Shown: piece after piece, positions 45,249 through 47,287 of the stretch | Layout of the letters: each line of letters starts with the position of its first letter | How positions within the stretch are numbered: the first letter of the stretch is position 1 | From: Gammaproteobacteria bacterium | GTDB taxonomy: Bacteria; Pseudomonadota; Gammaproteobacteria; CBDBNL01; G965229495 | Direction of reading: 5' to 3' | NCBI GenBank assembly: GCA_965229495.1 | Contig: OZ245880.1 | Span: forward strand, 518,603 to 582,602 | Length of the DNA: 64,000 bases | Position numbers and translations under genes: made by a program | The notes under the pieces: model-generated | Database searches by the model: none | What the model saw: the letters and a program-made list of their open reading frames with translations, nothing else | Told to the model about the DNA's origin: nothing

Positions 45249-45455
45249 GGCTTGGGTATGCGAGCGATATCGACGGCTAGGATAACTGCAAGCTTGCTAG
45301 ATTTCGATAACCAGAGCTGATTTTCGCGATTTGCTTGGGTGTTAGGTGAGGTGCTCAGAAAGCTCTGAACAGATAAGCTCTGCTTCACCGATCTCGCTCT
45401 GGATAGATTCAGCAAATCTGAGGATTTATTCAGATATTTCTTAAGTTTAGCTTGG

Positions 45456-46172
45456 TCATGCGCGGCCATCTAGAATCGCTTCAGCCCAAGCTAAGTTAGA
45501 TGCATATTTTGCTCCCCACTTGTTTAGTTCTGGTTGTACTCCTCCAGAGTTACTTGGTCCATACTCTTTTGTGTTTGAACTCAAAAAAACGAATTTACTT
45601 CCTGAGTTGCAATTCTGTAAATCTTTACACAACCCTAAGAATAATTCATATATTTCACAATCTTTTGACGCTTCTTTGCTACGGCTTGCGGGAGGCATAT
45701 ATTGTTTTACCCGGTTCATTGCCCTGGCTGAGTGCGCTTCTTCTGGCGCAACAATTAGACAAGCGCGTAACAATGAATCAGCAATTGATCTTAAAGTCTC
45801 CAGCAAATATATTATGTCATTTGATTTCAGCGCACTATTTTGATATTCTATATTAGTTGCAGATTTAATGGCAGAAAGAAGGTGTGTTCTTTTTGATTCG
45901 AGGCCTCGAATTTCCCGTTTGGTTTCTTCTGAAACTCCTTCAAGATTTTCCTGCCACTCTTTATAAACTGTGGCGCTTGTTACTAACCACAAAGCTCGTT
46001 GGGTAGGGCTTGATAGATCTATAAGCGACTTGGCAATCTTAGCAAAATTGGAATATGTATTGTCTCTAACGGGCGATCTTACTACATCAAGTAAGATGCA
46101 AGTATTGAAATATATTAGTGGTGCGGGATTTTTAAGCATTAGTTCGAGTGCATTTGCATAGCTAGTAATCAT
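45456..46172 (-). CDS. hypothetical protein with PIN-like (VapC-like) motif arrangement (AT-rich islet)
   Basis: 238 aa. It shows N-terminal beta1-like LIYFNTCILLD, central ...EEAHSARAM... and C-terminal FVFLSSNTKEYG resembling PIN hallmark segments (compare VapC FMLDTNICI / IAGHARS / IIVTNNTREF). The first acidic position is Asn. Confidence 0.35.
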   Translation of the reverse strand: MITSYANALELMLKNPAPLIYFNTCILLDVVRSPVRDNTYSNFAKIAKSLIDLSSPTQRALWLVTSATVYKEWQENLEGVSEETKREIRGLESKRTHLLSAIKSATNIEYQNSALKSNDIIYLLETLRSIADSLLRACLIVAPEEAHSARAMNRVKQYMPPASRSKEASKDCEIYELFLGLCKDLQNCNSGSKFVFLSSNTKEYGPSNSGGVQPELNKWGAKYASNLAWAEAILDGRA

Positions 46173-46808
46173 TTAGCGTGTCTCCACATATGACAGTAGA
46201 TCTTGTGCAAACTCAAATTGACCGCCTAGCATGGATGCCACGTCTTCTGACCAGCCACGTTCAACTAAAGTTCGAATTACTATGTCTGGGTCAAGGTCCG
46301 GCTTTGCTTCTTGAGCTAATACTAAAAATTCAAGCCAGCGCCTGTTATCTGATGGATGCGAACTTCCAGTTGATTTATTTGCCAAATCGGAGAAAAGCAT
46401 TAGCGCTTTTTCTACTTCTTCTCCAGCAACTTTACCAATACTTATTTGATCGCTTGTCAGCTCGGCGGTAGTAGAAATACCCTCAATTGCTGGAGTAACA
46501 ATATTTTCGTAGAAATTCTCCAGTGCAAAATTATATTGATCATAGGTGAGGCTGCCACTTCCAGTGGGAATGATATTAGAAACCCACAAAGTATCGTTAT
46601 CTTTTTGGAATATAAATAATTCTGACGGAGACACACTACTCCCTTCTTGCGCTTCAAAGCAAATAGATTTATCTACTGCGATTTCACGATTTTTTTCTTT
46701 ATCTCGCCCTCGAATCCACGGGGCTTTTAACTCATTTTCTAATTTATCTAGAAAATCGTTAGAACTAATACCGTTAAGGTAAATATACAGATCACGAAAA
46801 GTTTTCAT
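46173..46808 (-). CDS. hypothetical protein (AT-rich islet), upstream partner of the PIN-like ORF
   Basis: 211 aa with no recognisable motif. Its stop abuts the start of the next ORF, a two-gene operon arrangement. Confidence 0.4.
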   Translation of the reverse strand: MKTFRDLYIYLNGISSNDFLDKLENELKAPWIRGRDKEKNREIAVDKSICFEAQEGSSVSPSELFIFQKDNDTLWVSNIIPTGSGSLTYDQYNFALENFYENIVTPAIEGISTTAELTSDQISIGKVAGEEVEKALMLFSDLANKSTGSSHPSDNRRWLEFLVLAQEAKPDLDPDIVIRTLVERGWSEDVASMLGGQFEFAQDLLSYVETR

Positions 46809-47287
46809 ATTTCATCTGGTTCCCGTTGTGAGTTTTGTCAATTTGATGGGCGGCGTTCTGAGGTCTTGTTATGGCTAGAAAATGACCGAATGCCATAGAG
46901 TAGCAGTCGAGTAAATTTGTCATGCCTGTGACGATTATTCTGCAATAAGCTATTTGACAATTTTTTGCGAGTCAGCTGGATTTGGCTTATAGGGCAATGA
47001 TGACGAGTTGGGTGTCTATTGTTGCATGGGTAGGCCACAAAATGATTACTTACGCGCCAGAACATCTGCACCGAAGCTCTCGGAGCTCCTAGTATCAAAG
47101 AACACGTGCCAAGTGCTAGTTTACCTAGTAAGTATGCCTCCACCATGCTGAGTCTGCTAATTTTGCCTGCTCGCGCATCTCTGATGAACAACTAGCTAAA
47201 AAATCATCATTTCTGACGATTGCGCGCTTATCCGGGCTGGTGTATGGTTTGTTTTGATTGTTAAAACAAACCATAAGGGAGGGTTTT

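Follow-up and report, generated by a model that had tools for sequence, protein, structure and literature searches.

The question raised by this locus is whether the two genes of a low-GC stretch, wedged between marC and an amidase gene, form a functional unit and, if so, what such a unit would do. The stretch lies within 64,000 nucleotides of DNA from a Gammaproteobacteria bacterium, referred to here as the window. The GC fraction is 0.37-0.45 over positions 45200-47199, as compared with 0.57-0.62 in marC (44622-45248; Pfam MarC, 1.5e-51) on one flank and 0.57-0.65 in the amidase and ABC genes on the other (all in 400-nt intervals; amidase gene at 47258-48673), a difference of about 20 points. 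On the minus strand, a gene for a protein of 211 residues that begins MKTFRDLY (46173-46808, stop included), referred to here as the partner, precedes a gene for a PIN_12 (PF16289) nuclease of 238 residues (45456-46172); the TAA stop of the partner gene (46175-46173) directly abuts the ATG of the PIN gene at 46172, and the junction reads TAA-ATG. Chance open reading frames are excluded, because the homologues of both reach E-values as low as 1e-100 and both evolve under purifying selection (dN/dS 0.15-0.30). The neighbourhood includes HipA (38916-40223) and an IS3-family transposase (40782-41642), these two being 5 kb from the cassette, and JetD with a JetC-like ATPase of Wadjet (57497-62108), which lie 10 kb away. 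An earlier note on this sequence had described the low-GC stretch with its two flanking genes, the abutting reading frames and the hip, IS and Wadjet neighbours, and each of these was found again at its place.

PIN-domain toxins constitute the largest class of toxin-antitoxin systems, and the 238-residue protein belongs with them in fold. It matches PIN_12 with 38.7 bits (gathering cut-off 32, E 1.8e-9), its residues 20-204 covering profile positions 1-172 of 172, and nearly all of its listed homologues have precomputed PF16289 matches. Sequence profiles gave no significant match to solved structures; structure comparison revealed a VapC-like PIN fold, a three-layer alpha/beta/alpha arrangement with a parallel sheet, interrupted by a long insert made of helices 67-106 and 117-137. 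The PIN/VapC-type assignment had been made previously from the order of three peptides, LIYFNTCILLD, EEAHSARAM and FVFLSSNTKEYG; all three are present, and the assignment is borne out by both the fold and the family match.

The partner has two domains, an alpha/beta domain at the N-terminus (residues ~1-120) and a helical one at the C-terminus (~124-210). In the latter, the motif FS..ANKSTGSSHP.D..RW (residues 139-158) is invariant; residues W31, N78, P81, Y92 and N93 are invariant as well, and the window copy deviates at none of 60 conserved positions. The family to which it belongs is large, with 1602 clusters at 50% identity, and has no name. Searches of Pfam, NCBIfam, PADLOC and PHROGs gave no family match, in agreement with the previous remark that no motif of this protein could be placed. 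A hit to Peptidase_M48 with an E-value of only 0.2 was discarded as noise. No significant match to solved structures was obtained by sequence profile, the fold itself matches no solved structure, no enzymatic fold was detectable, and no AbrB, RHH, Phd, HTH or other recognisable DNA-binding domain was found. Being large, folded and devoid of a DNA-binding domain, the partner is unlike the classical type II antitoxins, a point that was counted against a toxin-antitoxin module.

The two genes are strictly paired across phyla. When their co-occurrence was examined in other genomes, as the earlier note had proposed, 40 of the 47 distinct loci with this PIN subfamily proved to have a partner homologue immediately upstream, in the same orientation. 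The paired loci span Gammaproteobacteria, Betaproteobacteria, plasmids of Alphaproteobacteria, and Planctomycetota, where the PIN proteins are only 21-31% identical. The spacing is within ~10 nt, or an overlap of 4 nt, in all loci; the divergence of the two proteins correlates (r = 0.82), and their conservation is alike (mean identity 0.34 for the partner and 0.32 for the nuclease). Either gene can occur alone. An apparently intact PIN gene stands without a detectable partner at three loci (L014, L024 and L037), which is awkward for an obligate toxin. Partner genes without PIN are present in two phages and one plasmid, the phage copies being located in a tail-module moron position (L048, 8001-8651) and beside an integrase (L049, 2040-2678). 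Lesions of the PIN gene were detected at about 7 of 45 loci; those with an intact partner include the substitution D23N in the window, an IS insertion (L046), a truncation (L017) and a frameshift (L035), and some of the frameshifts come from MAGs and are possible assembly errors. Since the lesions strike the PIN gene while the partner stays whole, the cost of the pair would seem to be on the PIN side. The PIN lesions and the PIN-less partners would both follow from a partner that does no harm by itself and neutralises the nuclease.

The distribution of the pair is that of a mobile, accessory unit. In a collection with one genome per species (185,579 species) it was detected at 40 loci, each locus has different, unrelated neighbours, IS elements or integrases adjoin several copies, and some genomes carry several. 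Plasmids hardly ever carry the pair (3 of 72,556 records), and none of the phages in the collection does, so that a role in addiction is not obvious. Horizontal acquisition, as suggested in the earlier note, is in accordance with the foreign GC content and the unrelated sites, but a recent arrival is not: the cassette is not recent here, because two related genomes, with flanks 91-94% identical, carry it at this very position. No empty amidase/marC site was found in exact-match scans of metagenome contigs with the flank sequences.

A moderate association of the pair with defence islands was also observed. Of 38 non-redundant loci, roughly 7-8 have clear defence genes no more than 5 kb away, a raw count, tallied per family, that is given with no background rate. 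These neighbours include Gabija (GajA 1.5e-198, GajB 6.8e-128), AbiEii, PDC-S32, MkoA (Mokosh) and a type IIG restriction enzyme; a PD-T4-6-like kinase and a complete CBASS operon are among the immediate upstream neighbours, and RelE/ParE and Phd/VapC modules also adjoin copies. Neither protein matches a known or candidate defence system in PADLOC-DB v2.0.0, where the partner gave no match and the PIN protein only a chance-level one to HamA (E 0.0077, 12.9 bits).

Regarding the limits of the cassette, homology to the syntenic copies ends at its distal side ~22 nt past the PIN stop codon (45438-45455, minus strand). At the other side, 449 nt separate the cassette from the amidase start. Only the proximal ~350 nt of this gap (46809-47160, minus strand) travel with the cassette, and this leader is common only to the two syntenic relatives; in other hosts, conservation ends ~30 nt upstream of the partner ATG. 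The 450-bp leader described previously is therefore real as a gap, but it is confined to this lineage and does not belong to the unit that different hosts have in common. Presumably it holds the promoter. A promoter scan of the leader gave no strong sigma-70 consensus site, the signals from promoter and terminator scans were at background level, and an Rfam search of the leader gave no match. The sole repeat found in it is a weak inverted repeat with 10-nt arms (AAATTTGTCA/TGACAATTTT, 46913-46964), which is not conserved in L005, and no conserved operator was found upstream of the pair across hosts. A 106-bp match between L005 and positions 44540-44435 of the window was considered as a cassette boundary or rearrangement and was rejected, as it stems from the insertion of a small, unrelated repeat element into L005.

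On balance, we favour the view that the cassette is a conserved, mobile, bicistronic toxin-antitoxin or defence module, in which a PIN_12 nuclease of ~236 residues would be controlled by an inhibitory partner of ~211 residues. The module is undescribed, given that it is not in PADLOC and was not found in the literature searched, and the partner type is new. The label of candidate undescribed toxin-antitoxin or defence module, given in the earlier note, is thus a fair one, and toxicity, neutralisation and phage defence are the functions that we infer for it. The model is drawn by analogy with VapBC and with Cosus (Brc24), a PIN12 phage-defence integron cassette that protects against phage T7 (bioRxiv 10.1101/2024.07.02.601719). 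According to this model, the partner would bind the PIN nuclease and keep it inactive; a trigger, which could be phage infection or the loss or turnover of the partner, would free the metal-dependent nuclease, and the cleavage of cellular or phage RNA would then halt growth or infection.

The copy in the window departs from the rest of its family at a position that bears directly on this model. Asn at the first acidic position had been pointed out in the earlier note, and it is real, as codon 23 of the PIN gene, where the first catalytic Asp would be encoded, reads AAT (46104-46106, minus strand); however, it is not a family trait. Residue 23 is Asp in 38 of 38 other members in alignment A2 and in 26 of 26 others in the broad alignment A9, and Asn23 is unique to the window copy among all homologues examined. 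The window protein retains E72, D171 and E176 (plus D29 and N200), and the full acidic set, a feature of the PIN family as a whole and of all other copies in A9, is broken in it by N23. A second substitution, G165S (codon 165, 45678-45680, minus strand), converts RGK to RSK at a position that is Gly in 38 of 38 other members and invariant within the close PIN family. Residue 23 aligns with PIN_12 profile position 4, the same as D14 of Cosus, and D14A in Cosus reduces protection more than 10^5-fold (bioRxiv 10.1101/2024.07.02.601719). Because Asn occupies this position, D23N likely inactivates or attenuates the protein, and the window nuclease is probably weakened or dead catalytically, next to a partner that is fully intact. 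The window allele would therefore be a poor experimental start, those of Idiomarina, Aeromonas and L005 being better, and amounts to a naturally occurring control with a mutated active site. An intact pair is available in Idiomarina sp. HP20-50, where the PIN gene lies downstream of the partner WP_317503730.1.

The odd residues lie in DNA with a history of its own. A first block (45967-46266, minus strand), which comprises the last ~31 partner codons and PIN codons 1-69, matches the syntenic relatives at only ~70-75% identity, versus 92-98% for the neighbouring DNA in a sliding comparison; its dS is 1.2-1.36, with dN/dS of 0.13-0.14, as against a dS of 0.16-0.31 elsewhere in the cassette. A second block (45667-45846, minus strand; PIN codons ~109-168) is 57-73% identical to these relatives, with dS of 2.7 and dN/dS of 0.09. 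Relaxed selection was considered as an explanation for the divergence of the PIN blocks and was rejected: a saturated dS combined with a dN/dS of 0.09-0.14 points to recombination. From these values, we conclude that recombination replaced the two blocks with those of a divergent allele and that the window copy is a mosaic.

These data bear on the first alternative, namely that the cassette in this genome is a decaying relic, in which the PIN protein is dead and the pair is kept by inertia or by a residual role of the partner. We consider this possible, although rather doubtful. It would account for D23N and G165S, both at positions invariant in all other members, the former equivalent to D14 of Cosus and, by motif, to D7 of VapC; structures of the VapC D7N and D7A mutants are among the Foldseek matches. 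The PIN gene of the sister genome L046, split by an IS element, and the other PIN lesions counted above also point in this direction. On the other hand, both reading frames are intact, dN/dS is 0.09-0.20 even in the blocks that hold the odd residues, with no sign of long-term relaxed selection, and the partner keeps all of its conserved positions; moreover, one Asp to Asn substitution might have arisen recently, might reflect an error of sequencing, or might not impair RNA binding.

A second alternative is that the pair works as a sensor-effector anti-phage system without any neutralisation, where the KA1/TBP-like N-terminal domain of the partner would sense a phage cue and activate or target a PIN nuclease that is otherwise quiescent; we regard this possibility as unlikely. 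A reversal of roles, in which the 211-residue protein would be the toxic effector and the PIN protein a catalytically dispensable regulator or antitoxin, seems very improbable. The ANKSTGSSHP loop together with W31, N78, P81, Y92 and N93 could form an active site, and the PIN protein tolerates the loss of D23 in the window; nevertheless, every other PIN copy keeps the full acidic set, the partner has no detectable enzymatic fold and occupies the upstream position typical of antitoxins, and its presence alone in two phages and a plasmid would be unlikely for a toxin. It is hardly credible that the pair serves housekeeping RNA processing, as a PIN nuclease with an RNA-binding adaptor outside any conflict system, given its patchy occurrence at unrelated sites, its foreign base composition, its multiple copies in some genomes, its frequent disruption by IS elements and frameshifts, and the retention here of a gene that has lost its catalytic Asp.

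If the partner is an inhibitor or a sensor of the nuclease, as in the module that we favour or in the sensor-effector alternative, it would represent a new antitoxin or sensor architecture, possibly used in phage counter-defence, and would provide a function for many proteins annotated as hypothetical. The whole PIN_12 subfamily is tied to this unnamed family, which comprises at least 1600 clusters (50% identity). A bolder proposal, which we put forward tentatively and think unlikely as a whole, is that the family is a new class of PIN_12 regulators in a widespread abortive-infection or toxin-antitoxin system, with the phage copies acting in counter-defence and the shuffling of alleles reflecting an arms race. 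In such a case, the PIN-less copies L048 and L049 would neutralise PIN_12 effectors of the host, and the joint replacement of the partner C-terminus and the PIN N-terminus would be the outcome of an arms race over the specificity between partner and nuclease.

The favoured module resembles VapBC in its bicistronic organization, with the partner upstream and a tight or overlapping junction. It differs in that the PIN protein, a member of a family of its own (PIN_12), exceeds VapC by ~100 residues and includes an inserted helical hairpin. In place of a small antitoxin with a DNA-binding domain and a disordered toxin-binding tail, as VapB, there is a fully folded protein of 211 residues, without AbrB, RHH, Phd or HTH domains and as conserved as the nuclease. 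The search for a palindromic operator turned up only the weak inverted repeat at 46913-46964. With Cosus, the window protein shares a match to Pfam PIN_12 (4.3e-10 for an N-terminal fragment of Cosus, 1.8e-9 for the window PIN) and the first acidic residue at the same profile position, and both are accessory, mobile genes. Cosus is a single reading frame in a cassette of 1.24 kb without a separate partner, whereas the window has a PIN-only protein with a partner apart, and its copy is without the Asp that Cosus needs; no Cosus fragment was significantly similar to the window PIN or partner profiles (best E-value 0.2), in a comparison made with a machine-read gcu24 sequence that has many frameshift errors. 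The DUF4935/PIN_12 proteins were assigned to a VapC-like structural group in which strand 2 is followed by a long helical insert, and their function was listed as unknown; they have about 350 residues and an extra C-terminal alpha/beta region, and are usually monocistronic (Matelska et al. 2017, PMC5499597). The structural group and the insert are shared by the window protein. As to whether the partner is related to the C-terminal region of long DUF4935 proteins, all proteins retrieved with a diversified PIN profile had 230-248 residues. Compared with the proteins of that study, the subfamily in the window is shorter, ~236 residues, and is almost always found behind a dedicated partner gene.

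The cassette consists of two minus-strand genes, one for a 211-aa protein (46173..46808), here called the partner, and directly downstream of it one for a 238-aa PIN protein (45456..46172). Both ORFs lie exactly where the earlier note had placed them, and the TAA stop codon of the first abuts the ATG of the second at 46172/46173, with zero spacing. The other features claimed for the site were also found: the pair is flanked by marC (Pfam MarC, 1.5e-51) and by the amidase gene of the amidase/ABC locus, and its GC content (0.37-0.45 over 45200-47199) is well below that of marC (0.57-0.62) and of the amidase/ABC genes (0.57-0.65). 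The hipBA/IS/Wadjet neighbourhood was located as HipA (38916-40223), an IS3-family transposase (40782-41642), and Wadjet JetD with a JetC-like ATPase (57497-62108).

The 238-aa product, previously described as PIN-like, is a member of the PIN_12 family with predicted nuclease activity. Pfam PF16289 matches it with 38.7 bits, above the curated cut-off of 32, residues 20-204 covering the whole profile (positions 1-172), and the AlphaFold model obtained with 39 homologues as input is confident (pLDDT 89, pTM 0.86). In this model strand 2 is followed by a long helical hairpin, formed by helices 67-106 and 117-137. A broad alignment that reaches down to 21% identity has T24, C25, L28, D29, R32, R36, E72, R154, P161, D171, E176 and N200 as invariant residues. 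D23 is conserved in every aligned sequence but that of the window, where N23 is the Asn already noticed at the first acidic position. The LDT motif that ends strand 1 would, on our own reading, make N23 the counterpart of D7 of Shigella VapC; the Foldseek matches include structures of the Shigella VapC D7N and D7A mutants.

The 211-aa partner is uncharacterised, but it belongs to a large family. It had been described as lacking a placeable motif, and indeed Pfam, NCBIfam, PADLOC and PHROGs gave no match and a sequence-profile search of solved structures gave no relative. Among 1.84 billion representative proteins, a profile search retrieved 1602 clusters at E <= 1e-3 and 568 at E <= 1e-30, nearly all with lengths of 206-226 aa. 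The structure is predicted with confidence (pLDDT 89.7): residues ~1-120 form an alpha/beta domain at the N-terminus, and residues ~124-210 a helical one at the C-terminus. Across the close family the loop FS..ANKSTGSSHP.D..RW does not vary; in a divergent Planctomycete branch it is replaced by FSDVATGGGLPLSE, and the two-domain layout is retained. Two longer members, P0095 (323 aa) and P0101 (332 aa), have a tandem duplication of the C-terminal helical module carrying ANKST...HP.D..RW; because the whole module is present twice in them, it is an independent unit.

Judged by sequence comparison, the two genes form a conserved module. Among loci gathered by homology to either protein, 40 of the 47 distinct ones carrying the PIN gene have a partner homologue immediately upstream on the same strand, the outcome of the co-occurrence check named beforehand. 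The spacing between the two genes never exceeds 8 nt, and at the other extreme they overlap by 4 nt. The hosts include Idiomarina, Aeromonas, Arhodomonas, Zoogloea, Sinorhizobium plasmids and many Planctomycetota, whose PIN proteins are only 21-31% identical to that of the window. The pairwise divergences of partner and PIN are correlated (r = 0.82), their conservation is much the same (mean identity 0.34 for the partner, 0.32 for PIN), and dN/dS values of 0.15-0.30 show purifying selection on both genes. In the NCBI annotation the two are a 'hypothetical protein' and a 'PIN domain-containing protein'.

The module is also mobile and often lies among conflict genes. Its neighbouring genes vary from one locus to another, and some genomes carry two or three copies. 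It is rare on plasmids, with 3 of 72,556 records, and was not detected in the phage collection searched. Its presence at unrelated sites in many hosts, together with a GC content far under that of the flanks, agrees with the horizontal acquisition proposed before. In Zoogloea and related MAGs (L027, L030-L034, L038, L045) the pair and more than 1.5 kb of flanking DNA are common to several contigs, two of them (L032, L038) from the single isolate Zoogloea sp. LCSB751; from these shared flanks, a larger repeated or mobile element seems to carry the pair in this group. Regarding defence genes, the Idiomarina pair adjoins a complete Gabija system and proteins with DpnII/MboI and Mrr_cat domains; on S. 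meliloti pRRI128_3 it lies immediately behind a CBASS operon of four genes, surrounded by RelE/ParE and Phd/VapC modules, an IS30 element and an integrase; and in S. chiapasense it adjoins RelE/XRE, DUF3800, PP2C and AAA-domain genes. A PADLOC scan of 298 ORFs within 5 kb at 38 non-redundant loci further matched AbiEii (3.5e-98), PDC-S32, a type IIG restriction enzyme and MkoA (2.2e-155); directly upstream of a Planctomycete pair (L035 7562-9175, plus strand), a 538-aa protein matches defence models of the PD-T4-6 Ser/Thr kinase (1.9e-62) and, more weakly, MkoA and PglW. The island setting suggested earlier therefore holds at some loci, but only at roughly a fifth of the 38, as a raw fraction; the association with defence genes is real but moderate.

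The best-supported reading is that the module is an undescribed two-gene PIN_12 unit that would function in the manner of VapBC-type toxin-antitoxin or abortive-infection systems, with a novel type of partner in the place of VapB beside the nuclease. A PADLOC search with both window proteins matched no known system and a literature search found no paper describing the pair, so that the earlier label of a candidate undescribed toxin-antitoxin or defence module is kept for this conserved, mobile pair, whose function we infer. Lesions affect mainly PIN rather than the partner. In L046, a metagenomic relative of the window, an IS3-family element (11277-12550; a 66-aa ORF and a 322-aa rve transposase) splits the PIN gene at codon ~214, its 3' end resuming 1.26 kb downstream with about 9 bp duplicated at the junction; the gene is truncated at another locus (L017), and in L035 (two frames) and several other MAGs its reading frame is split, some cases being maybe assembly errors. 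Conversely, the partner stands alone on a Fischerella plasmid and in two IMG/VR phage contigs: in L048 (8001-8651) it occupies a moron position between tape-measure and distal-tail genes, by an opposite-strand unknown 312-aa ORF, and in L049 (2040-2678) it adjoins an integrase, in an element that has a terminase gene as well. These observations agree with a harmless partner neutralising a costly nuclease, and phages may use the partner as a counter-defence gene; against this, three loci (L014, L024, L037) have an apparently intact PIN and no detectable partner. The chief competing reading is a sensor-effector defence system, whose partner protein would activate PIN rather than inhibit it.

A question separate from the role of the module is the state of the window copy, which may no longer function. 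Its PIN deviates at 8 of 79 columns conserved at 90% or more, including D23N and G165S at positions invariant in 38/38 other members, and the partner at 0 of 60. Cosus is a PIN12 integron cassette of a single gene, active against phage T7; its D14 falls at PIN_12 profile position 4, as N23 does, and Cosus D14A loses T7 protection more than 10^5-fold (bioRxiv 10.1101/2024.07.02.601719). Since D23N sits at a position needed for that protection, the window nuclease is probably weakened or dead; its best use is as a natural control with a mutated active site, and the family is a good experimental lead.

The origin of these changes can be followed in L005 and L046, two contigs of one ENA metagenome from close relatives (flanks 91-94% identical), both with the cassette in the corresponding position next to the amidase/ABC/paa genes. 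Against them, dS of the partner (0.23) agrees with the amidase value (0.21), and that of PIN is 0.78. Sliding-window identity delimits two divergent blocks, 46266-45967 (the last ~31 partner codons and PIN codons 1-69) and 45846-45667 (PIN codons ~109-168), within which all eight unusual PIN residues fall. Synonymous divergence in the two blocks is saturated (dS 1.2-2.7), with dN/dS of 0.09-0.14, values that rule out decay in place and point to import by recombination from a divergent allele itself under selection. The AT-rich leader claimed upstream of the partner is present (46809-47160), but it is conserved only among the window, L005 and L046, with ~30 nt before the ATG common across hosts; the leader yielded no Rfam match, and neither a clear promoter nor a conserved operator could be recognised. 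The amidase ORF beyond (47258-48673, plus strand) is listed from TTG with 471 aa, against 461 aa for its orthologues in L005 and L046; translation probably begins ~10 codons further in, and the leader would then be slightly longer.

On the other side, homology to both relatives stops ~22 nt past the PIN stop, where the window has marC and an AT-rich 388-aa ORF, both absent there in L005. This ORF (43180-44346, minus strand; GC 0.34-0.36, lower than the cassette) encodes about seven hydrophobic segments and matched nothing in Pfam, NCBIfam, PADLOC or PHROGs; it has the look of another foreign insertion, separate from the cassette, that carries the gene of an uncharacterised membrane protein. 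A repeat of ~143 bp, which may be a MITE-like element, separates the amidase gene from the cassette in L005 (8848-8990), where it is inserted precisely at GCAAAATTAG|CAGACT; ~81% identical copies lie in the window between marC and the 388-aa ORF (44375-44540) and at an unrelated place in another locus (L047 19362-19495). Repeated ATCTGTGGTT-like motifs characterise a 64-bp stretch, 86% conserved, that follows the 388-aa ORF in the window (42974-43037) and directly follows the cassette in L005 (10757-10820); in both genomes it marks the outer limit of the variable region.

The pair is unlikely to have a housekeeping role, because it is patchily distributed among differing neighbours rather than universally syntenic, foreign in composition, present in several copies in some genomes and often disrupted.

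In comparison with known systems, the window PIN qualifies as a member of Pfam PIN_12 and shares the long hairpin after strand 2 with the DUF4935/PIN_12 groups of Matelska et al. (PMC5499597), who list them as of unknown function and as usually mono-cistrons, whereas this subfamily is mostly found in a two-gene unit. The module matches none of the PADLOC systems, departs from Cosus in architecture, with two genes instead of one, and differs from VapBC in its antitoxin component.
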